This document shows positions 34,639-53,165 of a stretch of 64,000 nucleotides of DNA, in pieces; within the stretch, counting starts at the first letter, position 1; each line of letters begins with the position of its first letter. The notes beneath the pieces are model-generated. The model was not told where the DNA came from, did not search any database, and saw only the letters and a list, made by a program, of their open reading frames with translations. The translations under genes were made by a program, and so were the position numbers. This stretch comes from Candidatus Aenigmatarchaeota archaeon (lineage in GTDB: Archaea > Aenigmatarchaeota > Aenigmatarchaeia > CG10238-14 > SCSR01). Location of the stretch: the NCBI GenBank assembly GCA_039000165.1, contig JAWBTW010000005.1, positions 981 to 64,980 of the forward strand, written 5' to 3'.

Positions 34639-34677
34639 CTTAATCTATTAATAATTATTCTTTTTAACTTTAAATAT

Positions 34678-35270: not shown

Positions 35271-35296
35271 AGACTCACCTAAAAATTTTCTAATTA

Positions 35297-35667: not shown

Positions 35668-35671
35668 AATA

Positions 35672-36345: not shown

Positions 36346-36380
36346 ACATATCCTTTAAGTGCAATAGCTTAAATAATTTT

Positions 36381-36695: not shown

Positions 36696-36808
36696 AAATG
36701 AAATTAAGCAAAGAATAAATTTAAGCGGAAATGGAATTCTAGATTTAGAAATTAAAACAGGAAATTTTTCGTCTAGTAAGAAAGAATAGAAGATGAAAAA
36801 AATAAAAA

Positions 36809-37480
36809 TTAAACCAGTTTCATTGCTTTATATAACATCTTTTCTAGTTTCATCAACTTTTTTTGGTAAGAAGGGGTAGCAAGGTCTATGCTACTTTCTA
36901 AAACTTCTCTAGGGTCAAGGGGTATAGTATAAAGTACATCAGTACTCATAACTGCACCAAGCATAATGCCTGCAAGAAATTTTACTTTGTTAAACTCTTT
37001 TCCGTACCCTAGCTTGACCAATATTTTATCTGAAACGAACTTGAGCTTCTCCAATCTTTTATCTTTTTTAATTTCTTCTTCATTTCTAGGATCATCTGCT
37101 GATAAGCATGCTATTTGATACTCTTCTCCTAAAATTTTTCTAGCATTATAACTTAACCTTGGAACATGCCAATAACTTGAAATTAGGTATACTTTATCGA
37201 TAGGTTCTACGCGAGAAAGTATAAAAAGCAACATCTTACAATAATAAAGGTTAGATAACGTACTGTAAGAAAAAGGTTCTATTATAATATCTTTTCTTTC
37301 AACGCCTTTGGTTAGTATATAAGAAGCAATTGCGTCTGCTTCATTTTTCCCACAAACTATAACTCTATCTACTATAGAATTCTTGTAGGCTTTTATCGCC
37401 ACATCTGCTCTTGCTTTTGTATGAAATTGTAAACTTCGGTCTGGATTAACACCAGCTCCATGAAGTATTCCTACTTTCAT
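36809..37480 (-). CDS. DUF218 (YdcF/ElyC-like) domain protein
   Basis: MKVGILHGAGVNPDRSLQFHTKARADVAIKAY...DRVIVCGKNEADAIASYILTKG matches the DUF218 pattern. The internal Met is preferred over the ORF start at 37540. Confidence 0.5.
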   Translation of the reverse strand: MKVGILHGAGVNPDRSLQFHTKARADVAIKAYKNSIVDRVIVCGKNEADAIASYILTKGVERKDIIIEPFSYSTLSNLYYCKMLLFILSRVEPIDKVYLISSYWHVPRLSYNARKILGEEYQIACLSADDPRNEEEIKKDKRLEKLKFVSDKILVKLGYGKEFNKVKFLAGIMLGAVMSTDVLYTIPLDPREVLESSIDLATPSYQKKLMKLEKMLYKAMKLV

Positions 37481-37514
37481 AATATGGTAGGAAAGGTTAA
37501 AGGATTTAAAATTT

Positions 37515-37760
37515 TCATCTAGATTTCCAATACATAACAATGAGGAAAAAAATTACAGTAACAAAGGAAAATAATATCCAAACAGAAAATTCAGGAACAG
37601 TTACATGATATCCTGCAATTGATGGTTCCTGGGTAATCCATATAAATTTACCTTGTAAAGAGGAAGTAAAAACTAAACTAATAACTGACACTACAACTAA
37701 AAGTGAAACTACTATACTTCTCTTATGAAATTTCCAAACTTCCTTTAATATTTCTTTCAT
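37515..37760 (-). CDS. Hypothetical small membrane protein
   Basis: 81 aa, two predicted TM helices. Confidence 0.3.
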   Translation of the reverse strand: MKEILKEVWKFHKRSIVVSLLVVVSVISLVFTSSLQGKFIWITQEPSIAGYHVTVPEFSVWILFSFVTVIFFLIVMYWKSR

Positions 37761-38158
37761 TTAAACCAGCCTAGCTCTATATCACATATTTGGTGGACTA
37801 ACAGATTAATTCCAACAATTAAGGAATATTGTGGAAAAAGATTTAAGGTTAGTGAATATATCAAAAGTGAGATTATAGCATGAAAAATTGTTCTACTCCA
37901 AGAAGGATAATTCAATTTTCCATCTTTATAAAATTCAGCAAATAATTTACTAGGCATATATTTCTCCCTTAAAATTATTTTTATCGTACTTTTTCCTCTT
38001 GTCATAAGAGAGTATAAAAGATGATCTAAGTCTATTAAAGTGCCAGAAATCACACCTAGAATTATCCAAATTATACCATTTTGAATATCTAAACCAAGGT
38101 ATGCGGTTACTATGTAAGAAATTACTAAACTTATGGCTGTATGTTGCCAGAAATACAT
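37757..38158 (-). CDS. Hypothetical polytopic membrane protein
   Basis: 133 aa, about 4 hydrophobic helices; 4-nt overlap with the downstream small membrane ORF. Confidence 0.35.
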   Translation of the reverse strand: MYFWQHTAISLVISYIVTAYLGLDIQNGIIWIILGVISGTLIDLDHLLYSLMTRGKSTIKIILREKYMPSKLFAEFYKDGKLNYPSWSRTIFHAIISLLIYSLTLNLFPQYSLIVGINLLVHQICDIELGWFK

Positions 38159-38262: not shown

Positions 38263-38355
38263 TGGGGACGCTGGGATTTGAACCCAGGTTTTCTCGTGCA
38301 AAGCACTCTGAGCCTCCCAAGGGCCCGATCCTAGACCAAGCTAGACGACGTCCCC
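38263..38355 (-). tRNA. tRNA-Pro(UGG)-like with an ~18-nt insertion (putative non-canonical intron)
   Basis: Minus-strand read: GGGGACG-TC-GTCTAGCTTGGTCTAGGAT-C-GGGCC-CUUGGGA-GGCUC-[AGAGTGCTTTGCACGAGAAAAC]-CTGGG-TTCAAAT-CCCAG-CGTCCCC-A. Acceptor and T arms are canonical. The anticodon stem GGGCC/GGCUC with loop CUUGGGA gives anticodon UGG. 22 nt lie between the anticodon stem and the T stem, where 4-5 are expected. Confidence 0.55.
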
Positions 38356-38445
38356 CTTATTATAATTTTAAATTCGAGATAAATGCTTTTTTTACTTTCT
38401 CTTTGTCGTAGGATAGTTTTATTTAAAGCTTGCTTCAACAAAATA

Positions 38446-38520
38446 TGGGAGGACCGGGATTTGAACCCGGGTTGCCGGCACCCCAAGCCGGATGCCTAGA
38501 CCAAGCTAGCAGATCCTCCC
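38446..38520 (-). tRNA. tRNA-Pro(GGG)
   Basis: Minus-strand read: GGGAGGA-TC-TGCTAGCTTGGTCTAGGCA-T-CCGGC-TTGGGGT-GCCGG-CAAC-CCGGG-TTCAAAT-CCCGG-TCCTCCC-A. Clean cloverleaf, anticodon GGG, 74 nt. Confidence 0.75.
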
Positions 38521-38561: not shown

Positions 38562-39833
38562 ATGGTTTATGAAACTATTGTCGGCAGACTAAAAGAAGAT
38601 AGAGAAAAATTTGGAAACAAGTGCTCAGGCTACTTGGGTAAGCATATTGTTGGAACTGGTGAAGACGCTCACCTAACAACAAAAGTTTTTATCGATTTGC
38701 TTCGATGTCATGTAATTCTAATTTCAGGAAAAAGGGGAACAGGTAAAAGCTATGATGCAGGAGTAATAGCAGAAGAAATTGCTTCACTTCCAGAAGAATT
38801 TAGAAAAAATTTAAGCGTAATTATGATAGATACTATGGGTATTTTTTGGAGCTTAAAAAAGCCAAACGAACAGCAAAAATCTTTACTTAAAGAATGGAAT
38901 CTAGAACCAAAAGGTTTTGAAAATGTGAAAGTTTTTGTTCCTTATTCTCAGCTTCAAGATTTTAAAAATGCAGGAATTCCCGTTGACGAAGGAATTTCAA
39001 TTTTGCCTTATGAGTTTTCAGCAGAAGAATGGAGGCTAGCTTTTAACTTAAAAAGAACAGAGCCTGCAGGAATTGCTCTAGAAAAAGTTATAAACCAACT
39101 TTTAGAATCTCAACAAAATTTTTCCATAGATGATATAATAACAAAAGTTAGAGACGATAAAGAAATTTCACAAGAAGTGAAAAGTGCTTTAGAAAACATG
39201 TTAACTGTAGCTAAGCAATGGGGAGTTTTTGGAGAAAAAGGAATTAATATAGATGATGTTGTTCAACCAGGCCAAATTTCTGTAGTTGATGTTTCTAGGT
39301 TAAGGGCAACAGAAGCCTGGAGCGTTAGAAACTTTATTGTTGCTATAATAGCAAGAAAGGTTTATGAGTATCGTTTGCTAGCAAGAAAAGAAGAAGAAAT
39401 AGCAAAGCTTGAGGGAAGAAAGCTTGAAAAAAGATATCCTATGGTTTGGCTTATTGTTGATGAAGCTCACAACTTTTGTCCTTCAGATTTTGAAACAGTT
39501 TCTTCTCAACCATTTCTAACAATAGCAAAGCAAGGAAGAGAGCCTGGAGTAAGCTTGGTAGTAATAACACAAATGCCAAATAAAATTCATCAGGATATTC
39601 TAAGCCAATGCGATTTGGTAATTTCTCATCGTTTAACTTCTCGTGATGATTTACAAGCTTTGCATGCTGTTTATCAAACTTATATGGCTGAAGAAATTGA
39701 GAAAATGATTAACAAGCTCCCAAGATGGCCTGGAGCTGCTTTAATTCTTGATGATAATTTGGAAAAAATTTTTACTGTTTGTATTAGGCCTAGACTTTCA
39801 TGGCATGCAGGAGGAACTGCTGCAGTTGTTTAA
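38562..39833 (+). CDS. DUF87 / HerA-like P-loop ATPase (short form)
   Basis: 423 aa. Walker A ISGKRGTGKSYD; Walker B/DEAH-like WLIVDEAHNF; C-terminal VVITQMPNKIHQDILSQCDLVISHRL typical of the HerA/VirB4-like DUF87 clade. Confidence 0.65.
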   Translation: MVYETIVGRLKEDREKFGNKCSGYLGKHIVGTGEDAHLTTKVFIDLLRCHVILISGKRGTGKSYDAGVIAEEIASLPEEFRKNLSVIMIDTMGIFWSLKKPNEQQKSLLKEWNLEPKGFENVKVFVPYSQLQDFKNAGIPVDEGISILPYEFSAEEWRLAFNLKRTEPAGIALEKVINQLLESQQNFSIDDIITKVRDDKEISQEVKSALENMLTVAKQWGVFGEKGINIDDVVQPGQISVVDVSRLRATEAWSVRNFIVAIIARKVYEYRLLARKEEEIAKLEGRKLEKRYPMVWLIVDEAHNFCPSDFETVSSQPFLTIAKQGREPGVSLVVITQMPNKIHQDILSQCDLVISHRLTSRDDLQALHAVYQTYMAEEIEKMINKLPRWPGAALILDDNLEKIFTVCIRPRLSWHAGGTAAVV

Positions 39834-39896: not shown

Positions 39897-42098
39897 ATGA
39901 GAAAGCACCTAATTTTACTATTCTTTTTCTTCTTTCTACCAATCACTGTTTCAGCCCAAGATCTAGTAGCTTACTATTCCTTTGACGATTGCTCAGCCAA
40001 AGATTTATCTGGCTATAATAACAACGGAACAATTTATGGCGCAATCTGCACAGAAGGAAAAATAAATCAAGCTTTAAGCTTTGACGGTATAGACGATTAC
40101 ATAAATTGTGGAAATTCCTCTATTCTTAATCCTTCTTCGATAACAATCCTAGCCTGGATCTATCCAAAAGGCTGGGGAGAAAACGGAATGGGAAGAATAG
40201 TTACCAAATACTATTCCTACCAATTCTACGTTTATTCTGATGGCAACAGACTAAGCTTCTACTTTTGGAATTCCTCTAATTCAACCAATCAAGCCTGGTC
40301 GAACATAAACTCAACAAAACTAAACGAATGGCAGCATGTAGCAGTAACTTATGACGGAGAATACATTAAGTTTTACGTTAACGGCTTACTTTCAGGACAA
40401 ACAGCAATGAAAGCAGGAAGCTTGCAATCTTCTAACTCAAACCTAATTATAGGAAACAGAGAAAGCCTAGACAGAACTTTTAACGGCACAATAGACGAAG
40501 TAAAAATCTACAACAGAGCTTTAAGCAGCGAAGAAATCTACTCAGAATATCTAAAAACTGTTAAATACTTTCTTTCAGGTCAACTTAAAGACAAAAATGG
40601 TATTCCGCTTCAAGCAAATATTTCATTTTTAGACAAAGACACAAACGAAATAATTTTGATAAATCGAACAGATGAGAATGGAAGTTACCTTTTGTCAGCT
40701 TACTATGGAAGTTATGATATCTTGTATGAACTATCTGGCCAAAACTTGTGGATAAAAATAAAAGATTTTAATTTAAATCAGGATACAAGCGACATTTTAA
40801 ATTACATATCTTTTGAGTCAAATAAAATATCTTTTCAAGCCACCTTAGACAAAACAATTACTCTTGAGATATCAACTGACAAACCTCCTAGCAAAATTTT
40901 AATAAACGGAACCGAATTGGAAAAAGTTAATTCTTTGCAAGAATTGAAAAATAACAGCTGGTTTTATGAGTCATTTAAAAAAGTAATTCATTTACAAAAT
41001 TTTTTAGACTGTAATTTTCTTTGTAAACTTAAAAGATTTTCTTATGGTTTATGTAGAAATACCATGGAAGGCTTCCCGGAACCAGCTCCATTAGACCTTT
41101 CTGATGCAAGAAGAACTTTATGGAGATATTTTCCTTACTTATGGCACAGACATGAAGTTTTGGTTGAACTTTTCAAAAACTTATCAAATGCTCATCCAAA
41201 ATACGCTTCTTACGAATCTATAGGTAAATCGCATGAAGGTAGAGATATATTGATGTTTAAGATAGGAAATCCAGAAGGAGGAAAAGTTATGTGGGATGGG
41301 TGCATCCATGGTCCCGAAGATATAGGAAGCGAGATAATGTATATAATTGCAAAATGGCTTCTTGAAAGTGGGAACGAGACAGCTAATAGAATACTTCAAA
41401 GAAATTATATTCTTTTTATTCCTGTGGTGAATATGGATTCTTACGCAAGACAAAACAGGAATTTTAGCGCATGTCAATACGGAGTAGATTTGAACAGAAA
41501 CTTTGTAACAGGATGGCGCTCAAGAGCATGCACAATAGGAACGTGTACAAACGATACAGATTGCGAAAATAATTACGGCAGCTCTTATGTTTGTAGGAAT
41601 AACACTTGTGTTAATAACTATGATTATTCTGGAGAGTCTCCTGCAAGTGAGAATGAAACAAAAGCATTAAGATACGCTTTTCAAACTTATAGACCAGAGT
41701 TTTATGTTAACACTCATAGAGGTGGTTCTATTCTGTACTATTATTCTGGCAATAATATGTCGATTGTAAATTCCTTACTCCAGAGAATTAATGAATTAAG
41801 CTTACAAATGGGTGTAACACCTTATTCTGCCACTTCAGTTGGAGCAAATGGTATGGCTTTAGCCGATGCAAATTATTTTGGCGCTACTTCTTGGCTTTTC
41901 GAAATAGAAACTTGGGATGTTAATGTAACTTATGACGATATAGTAAATGTTTATTTTCCAAGAGTTTTACCAGTTTTTATAGCGATGTGCGAAGCTTCTG
42001 AAAAAGTTGTAGAAATTAATCCCTGCCTAAACGGAGAAATTTTAATTGACCAAAATACTTGTTTGCCATACTGGAAATGCTGTTGTTCTTTTTCTTAA
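39897..42098 (+). CDS. Secreted multidomain protein: signal peptide + LamG/ConA-like lectin domain + shared module + C-terminal M14 zinc carboxypeptidase domain
   Basis: 733 aa; signal peptide MRKHLILLFFFFFLPITVSAQDL. LamG_3-like block FDGIDDYINCGNS..ITILAWIYPKGW..WQHVAVTYDGEYIKFYVNG..FNGTIDEVKIYNRALSSEEI. M14 motifs SHEGRDILMFKIG and CIHGPEDIGSE (HxxE). Many N-x-S/T sequons. Confidence 0.7.
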   Translation: MRKHLILLFFFFFLPITVSAQDLVAYYSFDDCSAKDLSGYNNNGTIYGAICTEGKINQALSFDGIDDYINCGNSSILNPSSITILAWIYPKGWGENGMGRIVTKYYSYQFYVYSDGNRLSFYFWNSSNSTNQAWSNINSTKLNEWQHVAVTYDGEYIKFYVNGLLSGQTAMKAGSLQSSNSNLIIGNRESLDRTFNGTIDEVKIYNRALSSEEIYSEYLKTVKYFLSGQLKDKNGIPLQANISFLDKDTNEIILINRTDENGSYLLSAYYGSYDILYELSGQNLWIKIKDFNLNQDTSDILNYISFESNKISFQATLDKTITLEISTDKPPSKILINGTELEKVNSLQELKNNSWFYESFKKVIHLQNFLDCNFLCKLKRFSYGLCRNTMEGFPEPAPLDLSDARRTLWRYFPYLWHRHEVLVELFKNLSNAHPKYASYESIGKSHEGRDILMFKIGNPEGGKVMWDGCIHGPEDIGSEIMYIIAKWLLESGNETANRILQRNYILFIPVVNMDSYARQNRNFSACQYGVDLNRNFVTGWRSRACTIGTCTNDTDCENNYGSSYVCRNNTCVNNYDYSGESPASENETKALRYAFQTYRPEFYVNTHRGGSILYYYSGNNMSIVNSLLQRINELSLQMGVTPYSATSVGANGMALADANYFGATSWLFEIETWDVNVTYDDIVNVYFPRVLPVFIAMCEASEKVVEINPCLNGEILIDQNTCLPYWKCCCSFS

Positions 42099-42130
42099 AA
42101 TATTTGTTCAAAGAACACTAAGTTATATTT

Positions 42131-45100
42131 ATGAAAATATATTCTCAAATAATCGTTTTTCTTCTATTTATAGTTCTTTTATGTAGTCTCCCAACTTTCA
42201 TTAAAAAAGATGAAATAAATAACGAAAATTCTTCTTTTGAAGAAGAATGTACAGCTGTAATAGTTACAGGAACTCACGCAAAAGACGGAAGGGCTATAAT
42301 GATGAAGAATAGAGATTGGAGTGATACTCAGTACCAAAAACCTTGGTTTGTTAGTAGTTATGCTGGAGGAAATTACAGTTATATCTTAATGTCTGCTTAT
42401 ATGGGAATGAATGAAGTAGGATTAGCTATTATGAACACTCTTCAATCTTGTCCTGGTTTAAATGTTTGGCATTATAACATTCATGGAAATTACACTAATG
42501 ATAAATCAGTAGCTATGCAGTATGTTCTCTCTCATTTTTCAGATGTGGAAAAAGCAGTTATGTGGATAGTCGAAAATACTTACGGATTATGCGATTGTAT
42601 AGGAATAATAGGTCAAAATAGTAGCGTAGGTGCTTTTGTTTGGATAGATGGTGATAAGAAATACATAACTTGGGTCAATAATTCGCACGATGCTGCAGCA
42701 AACAGTTGGGTTCCAAACGGTGTTTACGGAACTAGAGGAGCAAGAGCAAAGCAACTTCTAGACCAAATCTACAATCAAAAAGGTTACATTTCTTGGGAGG
42801 ATGTAATTCAAGAAATAAGTAAAGATGAGTTTGATAGAGAAAAAACCAATAACAATTGTTACAGCTATAGTGATTGTATTAGCAGAGGAATAACAAGAGC
42901 AGCTATGGTAGCAGTTTCGGGAAATAGTAGCTATGAAGGCAGACTTAACATAATGTGGCTAACTTTTGGAGAAAATCCTACTATAGGTCTTTTCTTACCC
43001 TTAATGCCTGGGGTAATAGATTCCTCTTCAGACATACCAAGCATTTTTACTTCTGGAAACGGTTTAGGAGCTTTAGTAGAAGTTAAGAGGAACTATGCTA
43101 GAAATGGTTGTAGTTCTGAGCAATGGAACGGCACAAGAGTGAGAGAGATTCAGTCTTATTCTTTTTACGCTGAAAATTATACTTTTAAAAAATACGATGA
43201 ACTGATGAAGACAATTCCAAGTGGCTTATCTTATACTCAATTAAAAACGCTTCTTAAAAATTATATGAATGATTCGATAACTGTAGCTACCAACATATAT
43301 ATAGCAGAAAAAATACCTGAAGATTCTTTACCCAATTGTAGTGTCCTAAGTATAGATGAATCTTCTCCTTATGCTTATGCTTTAGACAATTCTATTTGGT
43401 ATAGTAATCTTTCTACGGGAAGCTTTGCTGTCAATATAGAGACTAACGATGATAAAGGAATAAGCAAAGTGAGCTTTCCGAGTACTACTTCCTCAGGAGG
43501 GGATGACACAATTCCTCCATATTCTTGGACCTATAGTTGGAATACCCAGAGTACTTATTCTGGAATAGCTACAGTTACAGTTTACGATACAGCACAGCAG
43601 ACTGGTACGTGTATTTTTAGCGTGATTAAGGATAGCGTAGCACCAACTACTACAGTAAATATCGAAGGAAACTATAACATTATTTTAAGTTGCGAGGATT
43701 CTGGCGTAGGTTGTAATGTCACTTATTATTGCATAGATACCGATAATTCCTGTAATCCTTCGAATGTATACTTAAATCCTATAACAACTTCTTGTACCGG
43801 TTGTTGCTATTTAAGATACCGTTCAGCAGATAAGGTTAACAATGTAGAAACTGTCAAATCTGTTTCTTTTGGCCATACTTGCGGTTGCTCAAGAGGCAAC
43901 CCTTCAGTTTTCATTATTCCATCATCTCAAAGTAACTTACCTGGGTATAAGTCAACTTACATAGTTTCAGTTAAAAGTAATGATAATGAAGCATGTGGAA
44001 TTTCTGTATTTAATTTGTCATTAGTCTTCTGCCAAGCTGGTATAAGTTGTAGCTTAATTAATAATACCTTAGCTATCTTGCCCGGAAATGCAATCAATAC
44101 TACATTAGAAATAACTTCAAGTCCTTCTGCTTCAGAAGGCAATTATATTTTTACTGTTAGAGCAACAAATTCTTTACTAAGCAATTATTTTGGAGAGGCT
44201 TCAGGAAGTTACATCGTTGTCTTAAAAAAACTAGTTTTAGAATATAAGTTCAGTGAAGGTCTGGGGTTAGTAGCTTACGATAACTCTGGATTTAATAATC
44301 ATGCAAATATTTTTGGGGCAAATTGGATAGAAGGCAAACACGACTTTGCTTTAAGTTTTGACGGAATAGACGACTATCTTGAAGTTTTGCAAGCCGATTC
44401 GATTAGTGGTTTTTCTTATGGTTTGTCTTTGAGCTTATGGGTTAAGTTTAACGAATTAAATAGAAGACAGGCGATTCTCAACAAATATGATACAAGAAGT
44501 AATCAAAGAGGTTGGTTCTTGGAGTACCAAAACCATTCTACTTATAGGGATGTTTTAGGATTTTTTGCTTCTTACAATGGAGTTAATTATAGTGAATGGT
44601 ACACTTCTTTCAAGCCTAATTTGGGAGAATGGTATCACTTAGCAGTTGTTTGGGAGCCAAATAAACTACCAAAGTTCTACGTGAATGGCGAACTTAAACA
44701 AACAATAAACAACAGAACAATTCCGCAAATTTTCAACAATACTCTAGCACCATTTCACATAGGAAAAAGTACTTATGCTACTGGAAGAGAATTTAACGGA
44801 ACGATAGATGAAGTTAAAATTTACAATTATGCTTTAACTGATAGCGAAATATTAGAAATATTTTCGAACGAAAGTAAAAATTATTTCAAAGGTTTCCTTA
44901 CCGATAAAGATGGTAGGCCATACCAAGGAATAGTATCAATCGACTCTCACGCAGGAAGCATAGAGAATGGAAATTATTTTCTCAGAATTGATTCAGGAAA
45001 TTATGATATTATATATTCTTTAGTCAACTTTCCTGTTCAGGGATTTTGGTTGAAACTTCTCAACTACTTAATCGATTCAGATTTGAATGATATAGTAAAT

Positions 45101-45304
45101 TATGTTGATAAGCAAGACAATAGAATTTCGTTCGTTGTCGAGTGTTTTAATTCTCAAAGTATTCAGGCTTACAGCCCTTCCAAACCAAACAAAGTAAAAG
45201 TTAATGGGGTTGAGATACCCTATGACGATTCTCTTTCTTCTATTCCTTCTTGGAAATACATTTCATCGAATAAAACAATCATTATTAAGTTCTTCTGTCA
45301 ATAA
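42131..45304 (+). CDS. Secreted multidomain protein: signal peptide + Ntn-hydrolase (peptidase C69-like) domain + LamG lectin-like domain + shared C-terminal module
   Basis: 1057 aa. After the signal peptide, EECTAVIVTGTHAKDGRAIMMKNRDW parallels the C69 N-terminal nucleophile motif (CTTILVGK..DGS...ARNED). LamG block FDGIDDYLEV..WYHLAVVWEP..FYVNGELK..FNGTIDEVKIYNYALTDSEILEIF. The C-terminal ~140 aa is homologous to the neighbouring proteins. Confidence 0.65.
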   Translation: MKIYSQIIVFLLFIVLLCSLPTFIKKDEINNENSSFEEECTAVIVTGTHAKDGRAIMMKNRDWSDTQYQKPWFVSSYAGGNYSYILMSAYMGMNEVGLAIMNTLQSCPGLNVWHYNIHGNYTNDKSVAMQYVLSHFSDVEKAVMWIVENTYGLCDCIGIIGQNSSVGAFVWIDGDKKYITWVNNSHDAAANSWVPNGVYGTRGARAKQLLDQIYNQKGYISWEDVIQEISKDEFDREKTNNNCYSYSDCISRGITRAAMVAVSGNSSYEGRLNIMWLTFGENPTIGLFLPLMPGVIDSSSDIPSIFTSGNGLGALVEVKRNYARNGCSSEQWNGTRVREIQSYSFYAENYTFKKYDELMKTIPSGLSYTQLKTLLKNYMNDSITVATNIYIAEKIPEDSLPNCSVLSIDESSPYAYALDNSIWYSNLSTGSFAVNIETNDDKGISKVSFPSTTSSGGDDTIPPYSWTYSWNTQSTYSGIATVTVYDTAQQTGTCIFSVIKDSVAPTTTVNIEGNYNIILSCEDSGVGCNVTYYCIDTDNSCNPSNVYLNPITTSCTGCCYLRYRSADKVNNVETVKSVSFGHTCGCSRGNPSVFIIPSSQSNLPGYKSTYIVSVKSNDNEACGISVFNLSLVFCQAGISCSLINNTLAILPGNAINTTLEITSSPSASEGNYIFTVRATNSLLSNYFGEASGSYIVVLKKLVLEYKFSEGLGLVAYDNSGFNNHANIFGANWIEGKHDFALSFDGIDDYLEVLQADSISGFSYGLSLSLWVKFNELNRRQAILNKYDTRSNQRGWFLEYQNHSTYRDVLGFFASYNGVNYSEWYTSFKPNLGEWYHLAVVWEPNKLPKFYVNGELKQTINNRTIPQIFNNTLAPFHIGKSTYATGREFNGTIDEVKIYNYALTDSEILEIFSNESKNYFKGFLTDKDGRPYQGIVSIDSHAGSIENGNYFLRIDSGNYDIIYSLVNFPVQGFWLKLLNYLIDSDLNDIVNYVDKQDNRISFVVECFNSQSIQAYSPSKPNKVKVNGVEIPYDDSLSSIPSWKYISSNKTIIIKFFCQ

Positions 45305-45311
45305 AATTATT

Positions 45312-47009
45312 ATGAATCAATTTTTTATCTTCCTTTTATCCGCTGCTCTTTTAATTTTACTCTTACCAACTTTCTATGACCTCCATAGTTCTAAAGTTCA
45401 GAGTTACTCTTTTCTTTCTAATTATGAATTAGCGCTTTTTAACTCCGAACTTTACCCTCTAGACTCAAATTTAATAACCGTTTGTTCTTCTGGGTGTAAC
45501 TTTACTTCTATTTACTCAGCTATAAATTACGCTAATATTACTCCAGGAGCAGATATGATTTATATAAAGGAAGGCGTATACACAGAAAACAACATCAAAT
45601 TATACAGCAACATCACAATCGTAGGCGATGGTATAGACAAAACAATTATAAGAAATAAGCTTTATAATTCTACAATAGGTCAAAGGGTTGATATTTTCAC
45701 TAGTAATGTTCCTTTAGAAAATGTTCGGATCGAAAATCTAACTGTTGATACTTTAGGTGTGCCAGACAACATGGGAAGTAGTGCCATAACTTTTCGAGGT
45801 AATGGCACGAACAAAAATATTGTTATTAGAAATGTTAAATCTATAAACGCTTTTGGAGCAGGTATAGCGATTCCAAACTTTGAAAATCTTGTAATAGAAA
45901 ATTGTATAATAAATAACACATGGACAGGAATAACAGTTGGTGGGGGGATAAATGCTTCGATTAAAAACAATATAATTGTTAATACTAGAGGGGATGGGAT
46001 TTTTCCACAAGTTAGACGTTCATCGAATCTCAGCGTTATAAAAGCTTTAATAGAAAATAATTATCTAGAGAATATCGGCGATACAGGAATAGATATAACT
46101 TCTGACTGTGATTTTAAACCTCATGAGGAAATTTATGTTGTTGGTAATAAGCTTAAAAATGCAAGTGTAAGAATTTCTTGTGCATTAAACATTACCTTAA
46201 TTAAGAACTTTATTAAATATGGAAGCATCGGTGTAGATGCTGGTGCAGGAAGACCCATAAACATAGCAATCGAAAATAATTCGATAGAAAGTTCAAAAAG
46301 AGGTATTGTTCTAGGTGGTGCTTTAAACGTAACCGTCAGGGACAACATTATTCATTTCTTTGCGTCTTCGGATTCTTCGCAAACAGGTATAAGTTCCGGA
46401 GTTTGGCAATCGTCGATATTACAAAATAATATTATTTTGAACCCACAAAACTATTGTATCGATTTTAATAATTGGCAGGTTGGCGGAAGCGGAAACACGT
46501 TAATAGAAAATAACACTCTAATCAACTGTGGTGATGTAGGGATTTATGATAATAATGTTAGTGTTGGAAAAGTAGTAATAAAAGGAAATAAGATACTAGA
46601 CTTTAAGAACTTATCAAGACACAGCATTCTTACAGAGAAAGAAAATAATGTATGGATCATAACTAACAACTGGATTTATAATAAAAGCATCTTTGCACCA
46701 AGTAGCATAATTAATGATAATGATTACTCTTATCCTGAACAGTTTTATTTTCCAATTTCTTTAAAAAGTAATAAGTTTATCTTCTCTTCAATACTTCAAG
46801 ATAGTAAAAATAAAATTTTAAGAATATATCTTGAAGAAATTGGATTTGGTTTGAACGAAGAAAACACGATAGAGATTTTCAGTCCAAAAAAACCTTCGAA
46901 AATTAAAATAAATAACCTTGTTGTAACATACGACGATTCTCTTTCTTTACTCCATTCTTGGAAATACGATTCTTCTAATAAAACAATAACTTTAAAGTTC
47001 TTTTCTTAA
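45312..47009 (+). CDS. Secreted right-handed parallel beta-helix repeat protein with shared C-terminal module
   Basis: ATG 45312 (MNQFFIFLLSAALLILLLP signal/anchor) preferred over the ORF-track start at 45204, which overlaps the previous gene. Repeated N-x-x-G-x-G-I/V beta-helix rungs (NAFGAGIAIPNFENLVIENCIINNTWTGITVGGGINASIKNNIIVNT). C-terminal ...KIKINNLVVTYDDSLSLLHSWKYDSSNKTITLKFF matches the neighbours. Confidence 0.6.
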   Translation: MNQFFIFLLSAALLILLLPTFYDLHSSKVQSYSFLSNYELALFNSELYPLDSNLITVCSSGCNFTSIYSAINYANITPGADMIYIKEGVYTENNIKLYSNITIVGDGIDKTIIRNKLYNSTIGQRVDIFTSNVPLENVRIENLTVDTLGVPDNMGSSAITFRGNGTNKNIVIRNVKSINAFGAGIAIPNFENLVIENCIINNTWTGITVGGGINASIKNNIIVNTRGDGIFPQVRRSSNLSVIKALIENNYLENIGDTGIDITSDCDFKPHEEIYVVGNKLKNASVRISCALNITLIKNFIKYGSIGVDAGAGRPINIAIENNSIESSKRGIVLGGALNVTVRDNIIHFFASSDSSQTGISSGVWQSSILQNNIILNPQNYCIDFNNWQVGGSGNTLIENNTLINCGDVGIYDNNVSVGKVVIKGNKILDFKNLSRHSILTEKENNVWIITNNWIYNKSIFAPSSIINDNDYSYPEQFYFPISLKSNKFIFSSILQDSKNKILRIYLEEIGFGLNEENTIEIFSPKKPSKIKINNLVVTYDDSLSLLHSWKYDSSNKTITLKFFS

Positions 47010-47121
47010 CCATAACGAAAAAAATTTAACTTATTCGACTTAGCGATTCGATAGCTTACTATTTCTAGCGAATATAGTCAAAGGTAAATGTTGATATTTA
47101 AAGGAGAATAAAAATATTTTA

Positions 47122-50100
47122 ATGATAAAATTCCCCGCTTTTTTATTAGCTTTTCTTATTACCTTAATTTTTTTCATTAGCGAGTCCGGTGCTTACGATT
47201 TTGCAATAATAAACACAACTAATGTACCAGAAGTAAACAACATATACGAAATGTTTAAAAATTTGGGTATAACTTACAAAAGTCTTTCACCTTCTCAAGT
47301 AACAAGCGAATCTGTTTTTAGCGATGTAAATGGTATAGTCTCTTTTATAGATGAAGGTTTTCCTGTGGCAAATTCCTCTGCAGTAATCGAGTTTGCAAAA
47401 AACCATGTTGTTATATGCCATGCTTACGACTTTGCAAATTATTATTTTCCTTCTTACTCAACTTCTTATCTTAAAGTCTCAGGAAGTACAGTAAATTACA
47501 CTAAGGACTGGGGAAATTTTAGAAAAAACGATAAAGCTCATTTTCAAAGAGAAGACGGCACTTTATACATTTTTCTATCTAGCTCTTTAGAGGGTGATCC
47601 AACAATTGAAAAAATTGCTCAATTCGATGCTACAAGAACTGCTTTCTTCCAAAAGAAAGGTTTAACAGAAAATACTGGCTTTTATGTTCTTGACCTTAAG
47701 GTTACGAGAAACGAAACGGAATGGTCCGGAATTTGGCATATTTTTCCTGCAGTCAAGCTAGTAAAAAATTTTTCGACCGGTAAATATGCGATGTGGATGA
47801 GTAATGGAGTATACTGGTGGGATATAAACTGGGTAAACACCTTTACAGATAGTTTAGCTACAAACAATCCAGAAATAGTTTCGAAAATTGTTATAGGTAA
47901 AAGTCTTGAAGGTAGAGATATTAGCGCTATTCTCATCGGAAAAGGCAATCGGTATGTAATAATTGATGGGACAATTCACGGTAATGAAAAATTGTCAACG
48001 TTTGCAAGCTTGAGATTTGCTGAAATGATTATCGAAAATTATAAAGCTAGAGGTTATTGGTACGATAGGTTACAAGAATTAAAGGTAATCATACTACCAA
48101 TTTTAAATCCTGACGGATTTGTCCATAATTGGAGACAAAATGCTAGAAGTTATCTTTATCCTTCAGATTATCAAAAATCTGGGTATGCTATGGCAGTGAA
48201 TGACCAATGGATTGCTCATGGCATACCAAATAGGGCAGAAGTTGAAGGTCATAAGTGTAATATTGTTCCTCAAGATTCTAATGTTAACGGAACAGTTTTA
48301 AGTGTTAATCAAACACATTTCAAAGTTGGTTTGACTTGGAAATCTGATGGCTCGCCAATAACCACACCTACAAACATTTCGTGGAGCTGCAATGCAACAT
48401 GTTGTAATTTAAACCGTGATTTTCCACCAGGTGCTGACGCTAGCGAACCAGAAACTAAAGCTTTAATAAACCTGGCAGCAAATTATACTCCTATAATTTA
48501 CATAAATGGACATGAGGGTGCTTACTACGAGTACAATAAATATTATTATGCTTCTAATTTAAAAGAGCCTTACATGGGTTTTGCAAAAAGAGCTACTAGT
48601 TTTGCTAAGACAATTTTTACAAACTTAAAACACTGGGGCTATTATACTGATGGAGGAACAAATTATTTCCTTGGAAGAGTGGATACTGCAGCATGCTGTA
48701 ATAATGTTTTTGCTGCTTATTATGTCACATGGAAACATAATGCTTCTTCTTATCTTGTAGAAACGATTGTGTGGAGTAGCACTTATGGGGCCAGACAACA
48801 GTTATACGGTTTTGATTATTATCTTTCCTTTTTTGACGGAGTTATTTCTCATCTAGATATCCTCAAAGAAAAAAATTTTGTTATTCATAGCACAGCAAAA
48901 ATTAAGTCGTTCAATTATGATAACCAATTAATCGTTATGTTAGATACTTCAGAAGCCATTTTACCTACACAAACTGTCATCTTTCTTGGGAATTATGGAA
49001 AACCTAATTCTGTAAAAATTGACGGGATAGAAAAATCTGAAGGTGATGGTTGGGTTTATTATACTGATAGCAATAACATAACCATTACAGGAGCTTCAAA
49101 CTCAATTGTGCTTGGTTGGGAGCCAACTTACACTGCTACCTTTTATCAAACAGGAATTCCTTCTGGTACACCATGGGGTGTTACTGTTGCTAGTAATAGG
49201 TATACTTCTACAGCAAGTAGTTTAACTGTATCTGGGCTGACAGGAACTGTTTCTTACAGCTATGATGCCATTGTTCCTGATACACCAGGAACTAGATACT
49301 CTTGTGTTTCAGATTGTTCTGGCTACGTTAGCCAAGAGTATAATACAACTTCAGCAAATTACATTACTCAATATTTCTTGGCAATGAGCGTAAATCCCGT
49401 AGGAAGTGGTAATGTAGCCCCAGGTAACGGATGGTATAACTCTAGTATGTCAATTACCATTAGTGCAAGTCCAAATCCCGGTTATGGCTTCTCTTTTTGG
49501 AATGGTTCTGGATCAGGCAGTTATACTGGCATAGAAAATCCTGCGTCGATAACGATGAATTCACCAATAACAGAAATTGCTAATTTTGTTCCTTTTTCCG
49601 ATGTAATCGGTTACTGGAAGTTTGACGAAGGCTCTGGTTATGAAGCAAAAGATTCCTCTGTTTATAAAAATAATGGTATAGTTAATGCATCATGGTCCTT
49701 AACTAATTGTCTTTCAATTTATTGCCTTAATTTTGACGGTATTGATGATGTTATCAACTGTTCGAATTCTTCAATTTTAAACCCTAGCCCAACAGGAAGC
49801 ATAACAGTAGAAGCCTGGATTTATCCAAGATCATACGGTGGAAACGGCTTAGGAAGAGTTGTTTCTAAAGAAACAGGAACTACAGCAAACCCTTATGCCT
49901 TAGAGTTAAGAAACACAACCGAAGCTTATACAAACGGCTTAGTCTTTTGCATAGGAAACGGAACTTCAGAAACTTGCACTATAGGTTCAGCTTGCAACAA
50001 CATAATTGCTCTAAACACATGGCAGCATGTTGCAGGAAGATATAATCGCACGCACTTAAGCGTTTTCGTAAACGGTGTTGAAAAGTGCACTCAAAGCTTA

Positions 50101-50706
50101 CTTGATTACAACTTCCAACCAGCTCCAACAAACCTTTTGATAGGAAACAACCCCACTAACTTAAGACAATTTAACGGCACCATAGACGAAGTTAGAATCT
50201 GGAACAGAGCTTTAAGCAACGAAGAAATAAAAAGTGAGTACGAAAAATTCAAGAAAATTTTTGGGCAACTGAAAGATAAGAATGGTATGGCTCTTCATGC
50301 TAACATCACAATTTACCAAGAAGATACAGAAAATATAGTATCTTTAGTCAAGACCGACGATTTTGGTAATTATCTTCTTCATGTATTGACAGGGAAGTAC
50401 GATGTCAAGTTTAGCTTTTTAGACTTTTCCTTTTCTGATTATTGGGTTAAATTTTTATCTCTCAATATATCTTCTCACCTTTTCAATCTTTTAAACCAAA
50501 TAGGTAAAACAAACAACAAAATCTCCTTCAATTTAAATATCAGTAATGACCAATTGATTGAAATTTACAGTCAAAGTAAGCCAACAAATGTTATGGCTAA
50601 CGACAAAAAACTGACTGAAGTTTTCTCTTTTTATAACTTGCAACCAAACACTTGGTTTTATGATTCGAGTGGAAAAAAACTTTATTTGTTTGTTTTAATT
50701 TCTTAA
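47122..50706 (+). CDS. Secreted multidomain protein: signal peptide + M14 zinc carboxypeptidase domain + LamG lectin-like domain + shared C-terminal module
   Basis: 1194 aa. M14 motifs IGKSLEGRDISAILIG and GTIHGNEKLST (HxxE) plus ILPILNPDGF. LamG block FDGIDDVINCSNSSILNP..ITVEAWIYPRSYGGNGLGRVVSKE..WQHVAGRYNRTHLSVFVNG..FNGTIDEVRIWNRALSNEEI. The C-terminal module is paralogous to 39897-42098 and 42131-45304. Confidence 0.7.
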   Translation: MIKFPAFLLAFLITLIFFISESGAYDFAIINTTNVPEVNNIYEMFKNLGITYKSLSPSQVTSESVFSDVNGIVSFIDEGFPVANSSAVIEFAKNHVVICHAYDFANYYFPSYSTSYLKVSGSTVNYTKDWGNFRKNDKAHFQREDGTLYIFLSSSLEGDPTIEKIAQFDATRTAFFQKKGLTENTGFYVLDLKVTRNETEWSGIWHIFPAVKLVKNFSTGKYAMWMSNGVYWWDINWVNTFTDSLATNNPEIVSKIVIGKSLEGRDISAILIGKGNRYVIIDGTIHGNEKLSTFASLRFAEMIIENYKARGYWYDRLQELKVIILPILNPDGFVHNWRQNARSYLYPSDYQKSGYAMAVNDQWIAHGIPNRAEVEGHKCNIVPQDSNVNGTVLSVNQTHFKVGLTWKSDGSPITTPTNISWSCNATCCNLNRDFPPGADASEPETKALINLAANYTPIIYINGHEGAYYEYNKYYYASNLKEPYMGFAKRATSFAKTIFTNLKHWGYYTDGGTNYFLGRVDTAACCNNVFAAYYVTWKHNASSYLVETIVWSSTYGARQQLYGFDYYLSFFDGVISHLDILKEKNFVIHSTAKIKSFNYDNQLIVMLDTSEAILPTQTVIFLGNYGKPNSVKIDGIEKSEGDGWVYYTDSNNITITGASNSIVLGWEPTYTATFYQTGIPSGTPWGVTVASNRYTSTASSLTVSGLTGTVSYSYDAIVPDTPGTRYSCVSDCSGYVSQEYNTTSANYITQYFLAMSVNPVGSGNVAPGNGWYNSSMSITISASPNPGYGFSFWNGSGSGSYTGIENPASITMNSPITEIANFVPFSDVIGYWKFDEGSGYEAKDSSVYKNNGIVNASWSLTNCLSIYCLNFDGIDDVINCSNSSILNPSPTGSITVEAWIYPRSYGGNGLGRVVSKETGTTANPYALELRNTTEAYTNGLVFCIGNGTSETCTIGSACNNIIALNTWQHVAGRYNRTHLSVFVNGVEKCTQSLLDYNFQPAPTNLLIGNNPTNLRQFNGTIDEVRIWNRALSNEEIKSEYEKFKKIFGQLKDKNGMALHANITIYQEDTENIVSLVKTDDFGNYLLHVLTGKYDVKFSFLDFSFSDYWVKFLSLNISSHLFNLLNQIGKTNNKISFNLNISNDQLIEIYSQSKPTNVMANDKKLTEVFSFYNLQPNTWFYDSSGKKLYLFVLIS

Positions 50707-50715: not shown

Positions 50716-51279
50716 TCAACAAATTTTTTCTCCTAAAATCTCAAAAATACTTTCATTCACAAAAACTGGTACTTCATAATCAACTCTTGCAGCTATAGCT
50801 AAGGCATCGCTTGGTCTAGAATCTAAGCCAAGAATCAAATTACCTTGTTTTAAAAAAAGTTTTGAAATGTAAGTTATTCTCCAGCTGCAATTTTCTTCTG
50901 GTAAGCAAGTCTCGTTTCTTGCTTCTGTTATTTTTACCATCAAAACTTGAATCCCAAAGTTTTTTAGCATATCTTTTATTAAATCATGAGTATAAGGTCT
51001 TGGTCCTAAAATTCTTTCCATTCCTCTTCCTATGGAAATTGCTTGGTTTTTATCAACTACCATACTTATTTGTTTGCAATCGCTTGTTAGCCTAACGATT
51101 CCTTCATCTTCTTTTATTTCAACAGAGACAGAAGAAGGGGCAAAACCTATTGTTGAGAGTTGGGGCAAAGCAAAAAAAGTTGAGAAGAAATTGCTTAGCA
51201 AATACCAAAAGAATAAAATAGCCAATATCAAAATTAAAAAAATCGTTGCGAATTTGTAAAAATTCCTTTCTTTTTTCAT
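50716..51279 (-). CDS. Membrane-anchored bifunctional nuclease (BFN/DUF151) domain protein
   Basis: 187 aa. N-terminal TM (ATIFLILILAILFFWYLL), then ISMVVDKNQAISIGRGMERILGPRPYTHDLIKDMLKNFGIQVLMVKI...RPSDALAIAARVDYEVPVFVNE, typical of the DUF151 nuclease family. Confidence 0.6.
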   Translation of the reverse strand: MKKERNFYKFATIFLILILAILFFWYLLSNFFSTFFALPQLSTIGFAPSSVSVEIKEDEGIVRLTSDCKQISMVVDKNQAISIGRGMERILGPRPYTHDLIKDMLKNFGIQVLMVKITEARNETCLPEENCSWRITYISKLFLKQGNLILGLDSRPSDALAIAARVDYEVPVFVNESIFEILGEKIC

Positions 51280-51302
51280 AATTTTAAAATAGCATTAGGC
51301 TT

Positions 51303-52271
51303 TTAAATCTCTAAGATGCAATCTTCCAAATTCTTATCGTTCCTTAATCTTACAAAGGAAGGAGCTCTTAGTTGTAAATCTTTTGTTATCTCCATAAACT
51401 TTACTTCACATATTAGCTTGGGCTTAACCCAGTTTACTATTAAATCAGAAGGAAGTTTTGGTTTTTCTTCTAAAGGGCATTCGTCTATTCTTAATTTTTT
51501 CAACTCTTCTGTAAGCTCAGCATATCCTTTTTCATCTAGGCCTGTTCCACATCTTCCTACATACTTTAATTTTCCTTGATGGAAACAAGCTAAGACCAAA
51601 GCTCCGAAGTATTTTTCACGCCAACCTTCACCTTTTGTATATCCTACAATAATACAATCTAAAGTTTTTAAGAACTTTATTTTCAACCAATTTTTACTTC
51701 TTTTTCCTATTTCATACTTTGAATCTAGGCGTTTTGCCATTATCCCTTCCAAACCCTTTTCCTTGGCTTTCTCAAAAAGATCTTTTCCTCTGCCAATTAT
51801 ATAGCTTGAAAGCATTATTCTTTGATTTTCTTTAACAATACTCTCCAGAATCCTTTTTCTTTCAATCAAAGGCTTATCAACTAAATCTTTTCCGTCTAAA
51901 TGTAAAATATCAAAAACAACGTAAGTAGCTGGCATGATTTCAGATAAAAGCTTAATTCTTAGTTTTTCTCCAACATGCTCTCTTGTCTGCAAAGCAAAAA
52001 AATCTGGCTTACCTTTTTTAAAGACAACTATTTCCCCGTCTAGCACAACTCTTTTTGCGTTTATGTTTTCATAAATTTTAAGAAGTTCAGGATAGTTTGA
52101 CTGGAAGAACTTAAGCCTTCTGTTGAGAAACCTCACTTCCTTTTTTTCTTTATCTATATAAGCTATAGTTCTTGTACCATCTAGCTTAATCTCAAAACAG
52201 AATTCGTCAGAATCAAAAGGTTCTGATATATAAGCAAGCATTGGTTTTATTATTTGGTCGAAAAGTGTCAT
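51303..52271 (-). CDS. ATP-dependent DNA ligase, minimal LigD-type ligase domain (adenylation + OB)
   Basis: 322 aa. Motif I EIKLDGTR (KxDGxR), motif III FDILHLDG, motif IV DGEIVV, motif V EGIMAKR, motif VI WLKIK. Confidence 0.8.
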   Translation of the reverse strand: MTLFDQIIKPMLAYISEPFDSDEFCFEIKLDGTRTIAYIDKEKKEVRFLNRRLKFFQSNYPELLKIYENINAKRVVLDGEIVVFKKGKPDFFALQTREHVGEKLRIKLLSEIMPATYVVFDILHLDGKDLVDKPLIERKRILESIVKENQRIMLSSYIIGRGKDLFEKAKEKGLEGIMAKRLDSKYEIGKRSKNWLKIKFLKTLDCIIVGYTKGEGWREKYFGALVLACFHQGKLKYVGRCGTGLDEKGYAELTEELKKLRIDECPLEEKPKLPSDLIVNWVKPKLICEVKFMEITKDLQLRAPSFVRLRNDKNLEDCILEI

Positions 52272-52358
52272 AATTAGATTTTATAAAAGAAATAATTTCT
52301 TTTCTTCTTTTTAAATCTCAAAACTCTGGAAAATTGGATTGGGTAAATTATCCAAAGT

Positions 52359-53165
52359 TCATCTACTATTCACTTCTTTCTTTTCCTCTTTCTTCTTTTT
52401 CACAGTTTCTATACTAGCTTTTAAAGCTTCTACAAGCTCCTTGGTTTCAGGAATTTTTTCCTCCTTAACTTCAATTTCCTTTCCTTCTGCTCTTGCTTTT
52501 ATCAGTTTCATAAGTTCTTCTGTGTAATTATCCTTAAACTTCGAAGCATCAAATTCTGATTCAGTTAACTTTGAAATTAAGGCTTGGGCTAGCTTAAGTT
52601 CCTCTTCTCTTACAGTTACTAAATTCTTAAGCTCGCTTATCTCTTCTATGTCCTTTATTTCTCCCAAGTAATGTAGAATGTGCATTACCAAACCCTTTTT
52701 AAAAGCTCTTATCGCAACCAAATATTCTTTATTTCTTATGACGACCTTCCCTATTGCAACTTTGTTCGTAATTCTTAGGGCTTCGACAAAAAGAGAGTAA
52801 GCTTTTATTCCTGTTTCTTCAGGGGCAATGTAATAGCTTTTTTCCAAGAATATCGGGTCTATTTGAGAAGCATCTACAAATTCTTGAATTTCTATAGCTT
52901 TAGTTGTTTTAAGCCTGAGCTTTTCCAGGTCTTCCTTTTTAATTATTACATACTGATCCTTAGCTATTTTGTATCCTTTTTCGATATCCTCATATGCAAC
53001 TTCTTTCTCGCATTTTGGACACCATCTCTTATAAACTAAAGGAGTTCCGCATTCTTTATGTAAATTATTAAAAGAAATTACTCTACTTTCTGTTGCCTTA
53101 TAAATCTTTATCGGAATGTTTACCAAGCCAAAAGATATGCTTCCTGAAAATATTGCTCTTGTCAT
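52359..53165 (-). CDS. ku: Ku protein (bacterial/archaeal single-domain Ku)
   Basis: 268 aa. MTRAIFSGSISFGLVNIPIKIYKATE is the hallmark Ku N-terminus; acidic/lysine-rich C-tail. Confidence 0.85.
   Translation of the reverse strand: MTRAIFSGSISFGLVNIPIKIYKATESRVISFNNLHKECGTPLVYKRWCPKCEKEVAYEDIEKGYKIAKDQYVIIKKEDLEKLRLKTTKAIEIQEFVDASQIDPIFLEKSYYIAPEETGIKAYSLFVEALRITNKVAIGKVVIRNKEYLVAIRAFKKGLVMHILHYLGEIKDIEEISELKNLVTVREEELKLAQALISKLTESEFDASKFKDNYTEELMKLIKARAEGKEIEVKEEKIPETKELVEALKASIETVKKKKEEKKEVNSR

Follow-up and report, generated by a model that had tools for sequence, protein, structure and literature searches.

In a 64,000-nucleotide window of contig JAWBTW010000005.1 (assembly GCA_039000165.1), from a hot-spring archaeon of the Aenigmatarchaeota (DPANN) with a genome of about 0.8 Mb, four consecutive genes, here called g1 to g4, encode large proteins with signal-like N-termini. 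Three of them join a lectin-like LamG domain and a module of about 150 residues to hydrolase heads of unrelated types, and g3 is a beta-helix protein that has the end of the same module. Our favoured reading, in which confidence and doubt are about equal, is that these genes encode extracellular hydrolases, targeted to glycans and varying as a set from strain to strain, which harvest amino acids and sugars from the glycopolymers of a host surface or matrix. The original prediction, made from the letters of the window, had described secreted-type, glycosylation-prone lectin-hydrolase fusions in a small-genome archaeon, and this was borne out in a DPANN lineage. Its term peptidase arsenal holds for the M14 carboxypeptidase and N-terminal nucleophile (Ntn) hydrolase heads but is too narrow, as the set is a mixed glycan and peptide one: the module is found mostly with glycoside hydrolases (GH), and GH5/GH39-like genes occur in sister loci.

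The gene array and its shared lectin unit

The four genes lie in a row on the plus strand (39897-50706), as had been predicted, and their products have 733, 1057, 565 and 1194 amino acids (aa). For g3 a length of 566 aa had been given; its open reading frame (ORF) is open from 45204 (601 aa), and the ATG at 45312, 7 nt past the g2 stop, gives 565 aa, which is also its length in public assemblies. The features of the array are as follows.

39897-42098, plus strand: g1, 733 aa; signal-like N-terminus, LamG 63-214, shared module ~214-370, M14 ~424-700 with a Cys-rich insertion
40536-41006, plus strand: shared-module copy internal to g1; transthyretin-like beta-sandwich plus beta extension
42131-45304, plus strand: g2, 1057 aa; signal-like N-terminus, short pro-segment, Cys40 Ntn head 40-~395, Big_7 428-484, OmpL47-like 519-580, LamG 745-907, shared module 909-1057
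45312-47009, plus strand: g3, 565 aa; signal-like N-terminus, right-handed parallel beta-helix, last ~50-90 aa of the shared module (46740-47006)
47122-50706, plus strand: g4, 1194 aa; signal-like N-terminus, ~210-aa region, M14 239-515+ with a ~90-aa insertion, InlB-B-repeat-like 755-823, LamG 889-1037, shared module 1039-1194

The motifs quoted in the original prediction were all found in the translations (FDGIDDY/V, WQHVA/WYHLA, FNGTIDEV(K/R)I(Y/W)N, SxEGRDI, HxxE and CTAVIVTG..DGR..KNRD), and the LamG, M14 and beta-helix assignments scored above their gathering cutoffs when searched with Pfam. For LamG, proposed for three of the four genes, the profile Laminin_G_3 (PF13385) scored 116.7 bits in g1 (E = 1.3e-33), 92.1 in g2 and 96.2 in g4 against a cutoff of 27.6, covering positions 1-150, 2-150 and 14-151 of its 151; Pfam found no Laminin_G_3 in g3. 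The genes had also been called paralogs. BLASTP among the four proteins detected paralogy only in LamG and the ensuing ~150 aa, with identities of 40% between g1 and g4, 34% between g1 and g2 and 28% between g2 and g4. The term is correct for this unit but not for the whole genes, whose heads are unrelated domains. In g1 the unit of LamG and module is N-terminal, whereas g2 and g4 have it at the C-terminus, and g3 has in common with them only the last ~50 aa, which are 59% identical to the g2 tail.

Structure prediction, proposed earlier as a check on the shared module, gave a high-confidence model of a transthyretin-like (TTR-like) beta-sandwich with an extension without structural match. Its structural matches include CnaB, the cellulosomal X-module and the transthyretin-like domains of carboxypeptidases D and M (CPD and CPM). 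An exhaustive profile search with the module found 562 protein clusters at E<=1e-3, of which 174 reached E<=1e-10. Among 116 full-length matches it was N-terminal in 23, internal in 75 and C-terminal in 18; this distribution, together with the lack of a C-terminal transmembrane (TM) segment, rules out a C-terminal sorting or anchor signal. The partner domains in 62 module proteins were LamG (15), GH5 (12), Beta_helix (5), Polysacc_lyase (3) and GHL15 (2), with GH99, GH43, GH39, GH130 and GH32 as further partners. Because of this company of LamG, GH5, beta-helix, polysaccharide lyase and other GH domains, the module is, as far as sequence can tell, a mobile unit of secreted glycan-active enzymes, and the pair of LamG and module is most likely a glycan-targeting and spacer unit. 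Homologs of the g1 LamG with a source name came mostly from bacteria of the candidate phyla radiation (CPR), with single matches in Woesearchaeota, Methanoperedens and a few other bacterial phyla. The NCBIfam model of TafC (NF052521), a subunit of the haloarchaeal Tat-fimbriae (PMC11821415), scored 33-51 bits against a cutoff of 410 and matched the LamG part only, and a TafC identity was dismissed.

A hydrophobicity scan found one strongly hydrophobic N-terminal segment in each of the four proteins and no second TM-like window. Classical cleavage contexts were read in g1 (MRKHLILLFFFFFLPITVSA followed by QD, that is, VSA before Q) and in g4 (SGA before Y). The signal peptides predicted for all four proteins thus stand as hydrophobic segments, with a cleavage context in two of them, and we infer that g1 to g4 are exported by a Sec-type N-terminal signal. 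The proteins had also been described as dense in N-x-S/T sequons. Per 100 aa they have 2.1-3.2 sequons, 4-6 times the background of 0.53 set by the window's other 55 ORFs, and the pilin-like genes downstream are similarly sequon-rich. The observed numbers in g1, g2, g3 and g4 were 19, 22, 18 and 25, compared with means of 9.7, 15.9, 10.8 and 18.2 after shuffling. Since the shuffled means are already high, much of the excess is explained by a composition rich in N, S and T. The four proteins are probably N-glycosylated, to judge from these sequons.

The hydrolase heads

Peptidase_M14 (PF00246) scored 100.1 bits in g1 (E = 2.3e-28) and 84.7 bits in g4 against a gathering cutoff of 21.6, which confirms the carboxypeptidase assignment in two genes. 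The Pfam spans are 424-620 in g1 and 239-515 in g4, and the two domains are 25% identical to each other. The best match of the g1 domain in the Protein Data Bank (PDB) is carboxypeptidase B (7eqx), with HxxE, DLNRNF and the distal His aligned; those of g4 are carboxypeptidases B and A (CPB, CPA), with HxxE and the distal His aligned. In the g1 and g4 alignments the canonical positions are taken by HGPE and HGNE, DLNRNF and NLNRDF, and THRGG and NGHEG. The zinc ligands (HxxE and the distal His) and the N-R substrate-binding pair (N144-R145) are visible in the alignments to CPB and carboxypeptidase O (CPO), and candidates for the catalytic Glu (Glu270), located by eye, lie in LFEIE of g1 and LVETI of g4. 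The g4 protein also has an InlB-B-repeat-like domain at 755-823 in Pfam, and its N-terminal 236 aa have no Pfam match.

The original prediction had linked the M14 domains to cell-wall peptidases. This link was not supported, as the relatives found by phmmer in the PDB are carboxypeptidases B, A, O, T, N and M. All g1 and g4 matches at E<=0.01 are named carboxypeptidase A, B, O, T, N, M or D, except for 3mn8 ('LP15968p') and 3l2n ('Peptidase M14, carboxypeptidase A'). No murein or gamma-D-Glu-meso-DAP peptidase is named among them, although the comparison is one of sequence with solved structures only and makes a weak test.

The head of g2 had been described as C69-like. Structure prediction, also proposed earlier, returned an Ntn fold: the AF2 model has a pLDDT of 80, and its best Foldseek match is the C69 dipeptidase 5imh of L. 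farciminis (E 1.9e-10, TMq 0.57, full length, 13% identity). Lower matches are 3gvz, the C45 isopenicillin-N acyltransferase (IAT), the C59 bile salt hydrolase (BSH), NAAA and acid ceramidase; across C69, C45, C59 and NAAA/acid ceramidase the E values range from 2e-10 to 1e-3 and the identities to solved members from 11 to 14%. The sequence relationships are different. A direct sequence search of the PDB with the Ntn head gave no match, and neither C69 (PF03577) nor C45 of Pfam matched g2 at E<=0.01; the NCBIfam C45 model (NF040521) scored 35.9 bits at the g2 N-terminus against a cutoff of 85. For the first 440 residues, 28 homologs of 31-41% identity were found, and those with a source name belong to metagenome-assembled genomes (MAGs) of Bathyarchaeia, Thorarchaeota and Thermoplasmatota. 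PF03417 (C45/AAT) is precomputed on 20 of these 28, and the family profile matches 3gvz and C59 enzymes, weakly in sequence. All 29 aligned sequences share Cys40, placed immediately past the signal and pro-segment, and K59-N60-R61. By its model, the g2 head is a Cys-nucleophile Ntn hydrolase of the alpha-beta-beta-alpha type, in a family that appears nearer to C45 by sequence and C69-like by fold. The C69 claim therefore stands for the fold, and plain C69 membership was rejected because sequence profiles do not back it. The head is predicted to cleave dipeptides or other small amides. The middle of g2 has a Big_7 Ig domain (Pfam, 428-484) and an OmpL47-like barrel (NCBIfam).

Some homologs of the g2 head from other archaea (P0004, P0006, P0008 and P0011) end in I/V-PEF/PES, a hydrophobic stretch and a basic tail, which resemble archaeosortase signals of the PEF-CTERM type, and others carry a dockerin (PF00404). 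The same Ntn head is therefore shown by different anchoring devices in different lineages.

The beta-helix predicted for one gene was found in g3, where Beta_helix (PF13229) scored 46.2 bits against 25.9 (E 4.9e-12) and Pect-lyase_RHGA_epim (PF12708) 34.7 bits against 27 (E 2e-08). A Pectinesterase match (28 bits against 27) is confined to the N-terminal 60 aa and to positions 3-68 of 298 in the profile, and PDB matches have E values of 0.02-0.05 over ~50 aa. The g3 protein is probably glycan-active.

Variation of the array among related genomes

The content and order of the array differ in four related loci at a fixed site beside a gene for a bifunctional-nuclease-domain (BFN) protein. In a genome of 98% identity (locus L003) the array is X-g1-g2-g3-g4, where X encodes 1105 aa with a PHP/DUF3604-like N-terminus, a GH-like middle with WEIWNEP and the same tail, and a GH5 cellulase gene lies further upstream. 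In a relative of 80% identity (L007) the site reads X'-g1-g2 followed by the BFN nuclease gene, and g3 and g4 are absent. In one of 74% identity (L008) a g2-like gene comes first, then a g1-like gene, and last a g3 ortholog with a GH39/GH5-like domain fused to it. In more distant small-genome archaea, M14-LamG genes occur singly amid housekeeping genes, and one such archaeon has, on a 783-kb contig (L010), a tandem array of analogous build, with LamG, module and heads of the GH5/GH39 types. An AbiEii toxin-like gene with a small partner ORF lies inside the latter array (6338-7551). The variation in relatives of 98%, 80% and 74% identity agrees with the earlier statement that the genes are not housekeeping, and no conserved core operon was seen.

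The g1 contig of the 80%-identity relative is 8.8 kb long (JAWBPK010000036.1, GCA_038824995.1) and has g1 and g2 orthologs of 81% and 89% aa identity and the BFN neighbour. Its MAG is labelled 'Candidatus Jordarchaeaceae' (Asgard); the contig is likely mis-binned Aenigmatarchaeota, and transfer is less likely.

Whole-gene dN/dS was 0.10-0.31 in comparison with L003 and 0.12-0.13 with L007 and L008 (0.12-0.15 for g1 and 0.20 for g4). All four genes are therefore maintained as wholes under purifying selection, and strong diversifying selection was not seen at this level.

The intergenic spacers g1/g2, g2/g3 and g3/g4 are 32, 7 and 112 nt. TATA-like, AT-rich stretches are found 5' of g1 and of g4, which makes two transcription units, g1-g2-g3 and g4, plausible. 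The GC content across the array (0.32-0.36) matches the remainder of the window and does not support a mobile island by composition, and among the neighbouring ORFs covered by a scan there was no match to an integrase or transposase. The X/g1 junction of L003 (stop, spacer, start) is nearly identical to the g2/g3 junction of the window, and the tails have a conserved DNA stretch, which hints at recombination between cassettes. The g1 genes of the window and L003 diverge exactly within the first ~21 nt. It is conceivable, though we think it rather improbable, that the array is driven by recombination, with near-identical DNA at the junctions (module tail, stop codon, short spacer and start codon of the following gene) letting hydrolase cassettes enter, leave and reorder, and that the strain-specific set of enzymes decides which host surface or polymer can be exploited. 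If this is true, the cassette array would be a determinant of host range or niche, with a logic comparable to that of variable tail-fibre or polysaccharide utilisation (PUL) loci.

Upstream of the array, the identity between window and sister genome (33934-38737 against L003 1-4443) is mosaic: 85.6% over housekeeping genes from SepF to Rpr2 (33934-36726), and 94-98% from tRNA-Pro onward. A DUF218 gene with small ORFs (36809-38158) is replaced in L003 by the GH5 cellulase gene. The mosaic suggests a hot spot of recombination or replacement, or a chimeric MAG.

Possible roles and genomic surroundings

The original prediction held that such an array is not a described system. This was too strong, as DPANN archaea are known to have surface proteins that resemble lectins, peptidases and pectin lyases (PMC7443923; bioRxiv 10.1101/2023.10.27.564410). 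Lectin-like LamG/ConA proteins that are heavily N-glycosylated and organism-specific are reportedly common to nanohaloarchaea and have been proposed as host-attachment systems (PMC7443923). In Nanobdella aerobiophila, surface proteins resembling pectin lyase, thermopsin peptidase and lectins have been proposed to serve host recognition and S-layer degradation (bioRxiv 10.1101/2023.10.27.564410), and ARMAN Mia14 has a LamG locus on a genomic island (PMC5498576). The array fits the description of these proteins in being large, organism-specific, sequon-rich and of the LamG/ConA jelly-roll type, in small-genome archaea, with an attachment role that is putative here and a surface role towards the host that has been proposed for the known ones. 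As in Nanobdella, the lectin-like proteins accompany beta-helix proteins of the pectin-lyase type and peptidase-like proteins. Unlike those, the lectin here is fused to M14 or Cys-Ntn heads and not to thermopsin, LamG always precedes the TTR-like module of ~150 aa, and the tandem array varies between close relatives.

Other systems resemble the array in part. The SPEARE proteins of Ca. Nanohaloarchaeum antarcticus are reportedly unusually large, with serine protease and restriction endonuclease domains, whereas the proteins here have 565-1194 aa and Pfam found neither domain in g1 to g4. They are alike in that a DPANN surface protein joins adhesion and protease functions, to judge from the mention of SPEARE in PMC7443923. 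Cellulosome-type modular enzymes also combine variable catalytic heads with a constant targeting or spacer unit; the module resembles the X-module and CnaB and co-occurs with GH5, GH39, polysaccharide lyase and beta-helix domains, and archaeal homologs of the Ntn head carry dockerins. However, Pfam found no Dockerin or Cohesin in g1 to g4, three of the four heads here are of peptidase or amidase type and not glycosidases, and the organism is a DPANN archaeon. The metazoan M14B enzymes (CPD, CPM and carboxypeptidase N, CPN) likewise have M14 and a transthyretin-like beta-sandwich in one protein, but the domain order here is another: in g1 the module precedes M14, and in g4 the two are ~500 aa apart. 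Because the same module also joins unrelated heads, this is not the M14B architecture. The g2 head shares with the C69 dipeptidase 5imh and the C45 isopenicillin-N acyltransferase/carcinine hydrolase the Ntn fold, a Cys nucleophile exposed after leader removal and a KNRD-type motif, with processing being predicted for g2; it differs in being of secreted type and fused to Ig-like, LamG and TTR-like domains. The array therefore fits a theme already known in DPANN archaea, surface proteins of the lectin and hydrolase kinds, with new enzyme types. What is new is that LamG is fused to heads of the M14 and Cys-Ntn types, that a TTR-like module recurs, that this module is linked to glycoside hydrolases and that the array varies like a set of cassettes at a fixed chromosomal site.

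In the favoured reading, g1 to g4 would be exported via the Sec-type signal and N-glycosylated. LamG and module would hold the g1, g2 and g4 enzymes on glycosylated polymers, which could be host S-layer glycoproteins, biofilm or detrital matrix, or possibly the glycosylated surface of the cell itself. The M14 zinc carboxypeptidases of g1 and g4 would trim peptides from C-termini, the g2 head would activate itself at Cys40 and split small amides or dipeptides, and the g3 beta-helix would act on glycans, with clan-A glycoside hydrolases at the same locus in sister genomes. Amino acids and sugars would be released beside a cell that cannot make them. Aenigmarchaeota reportedly lack biosynthesis of amino acids and nucleotides and have extracellular peptidases (PMC8407114), and for this reason harvesting is the most economical role. 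Extracellular polysaccharide hydrolysis by a DPANN symbiont is a precedent (PMC7443923).

Several points weigh against this reading. Few amino-acid transporters were reported in Aenigmarchaeota (PMC8407114), which weakens a simple scheme of digestion and import. The equivalent of Tyr248 of M14 was not confidently located in the g1 and g4 alignments, and g3 fails as a pectinesterase or pectate lyase, the match being partial and catalytic residues not identified. The module resembles generic stalk and adhesin folds such as CnaB and the X-module and could be a mere spacer, and glycan binding by LamG and module is putative. The signal peptides of g1 to g4 were called from hydrophobicity, and the enzyme activity, localisation and expression of these proteins are putative. 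We infer their export, glycosylation, glycan binding, substrates and nutritional role.

The original prediction had suggested that the proteins digest the envelope of a host or partner cell. Attack on the host envelope together with attachment, in which the lectins recognise the host surface and the heads open the S-layer or wall for ectosymbiotic contact, would suit a DPANN lineage, and both the proposed host-specific attachment by lectin-like N-glycosylated proteins (PMC7443923) and the proposed breakdown of the host's S-layer by peptidase- and pectin-lyase-like Nanobdella proteins (10.1101/2023.10.27.564410) point the same way. Strain-level variability of the array fits adaptation to host range, and a pilus locus lies ~5 kb away. 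However, M14 and C69/C45-type heads act on chain ends or small amides and are not endoproteases, so that they are ill suited to a primary role in breaching an envelope. The nearest solved relatives of the M14 domains are carboxypeptidases A, B, T and N and not cell-wall peptidases, the commonest partners of the module are GH5 'cellulase'-type enzymes, and whole-gene dN/dS is without diversifying selection. Envelope digestion is weakened by these heads and M14 relatives, and we regard it as rather unlikely, if a serious alternative.

Remodelling of the cell's own S-layer had also been suggested. Secreted-type proteins encoded near pilin genes might mature or remodel the S-layer, pilins and surface glycoproteins of the cell itself, carboxypeptidases can trim the C-termini of surface proteins, and LamG could bind the cell's own N-glycans. 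Genes for core envelope biogenesis would be expected to be conserved, but the 80%-identity relative lacks g3 and g4 and has other cassettes at this site, the order is swapped in another, and distant relatives hold single scattered M14-LamG genes. Own-envelope maintenance is a poor fit to these loci and is very unlikely. We give equally little credence to the proteins being mainly adhesins or structural surface proteins whose enzyme-like domains bind and do not catalyse. Large beta-rich multidomain proteins with Ig-like, CnaB/TTR-like and LamG domains would suit such a role, and work cited within PMC5498576 describes beta-helix and PKD/Ig domains in the S-layer proteins of archaea. Against this, the catalytic motifs that could be aligned in both M14 domains and the Ntn Cys nucleophile are retained, and the genes evolve under purifying selection.

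Little is understood of the means by which DPANN archaea recognise partners and acquire amino acids and sugars, and the candidates are nearly all unannotated surface proteins. The present locus offers enzymes that can be assayed, two M14 carboxypeptidases and a Cys-Ntn amidase or dipeptidase, on a defined lectin and TTR-like unit that recurs in hundreds of proteins of uncultured archaea with glycoside hydrolase heads. Should this unit serve for targeting, it would be a marker of the extracellular 'feeding' or contact proteome of these lineages, and specialisation for a niche or host could be read from the variation of the cassettes; if it does not, the locus would be an ordinary, well-annotated set of secreted hydrolases.

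The window carries genes for the archaeal ribosomal proteins S19e and L15e, the proteasome alpha subunit, exosome components and RNase P p30. The g1 gene is 98% identical to one on an 802-kb scaffold of 'Candidatus Aenigmatarchaeota archaeon DRTY-6_201808_bins_93' (species representative), and a contig scan of genomes with g1 gave the species representative as sole match. The g2 gene was found identical in GCA_039000015.1. The array had been placed right after a tRNA pair; the pair is indeed upstream, but a HerA/DUF87-like gene stands between it and g1.

38263-38520, minus strand: two tRNA-Pro genes (TGG 93 nt; GGG 75 nt; ARAGORN, Rfam tRNA), 1.4 kb upstream of g1
38562-39833, plus strand: HerA/DUF87-like P-loop ATPase gene, 423 aa (Pfam DUF87, Zot; weak NCBIfam HerA/CedD), directly upstream of g1

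The tRNA-Pro(TGG) gene (38263-38355, minus strand) has 93 nt against 75 nt in its neighbour and probably contains an archaeal intron. We treat the HerA-like ATPase as context, as there is no evidence of a link to the array. It is intein-free in the window, and its L003 ortholog (4268-6646, 792 aa) has Intein_splicing and a LAGLIDADG_3 homing endonuclease.

Downstream, the minus strand encodes in order the BFN protein, an ATP-dependent DNA ligase, Ku, a radical SAM protein and CTP synthase. BFN, DNA ligase and Ku adjoin at 50716-53165 and look like a repair set of the non-homologous end joining (NHEJ) type in a small-genome DPANN archaeon. The type IV pilus locus, to which the array had been called adjacent, is present as a pilus-like one, with pilin-like genes, T2SSF and a PilB-type ATPase on the minus strand from 56052 onward, but it starts ~5.3 kb downstream, past these five housekeeping genes. 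Two overlapping ORFs in it (60450-61508 and 61262-62140, minus strand) both match T2SSF; they could be two adjacent genes with a wrongly called start, or a gene for the pilus platform that has been frameshifted or duplicated.

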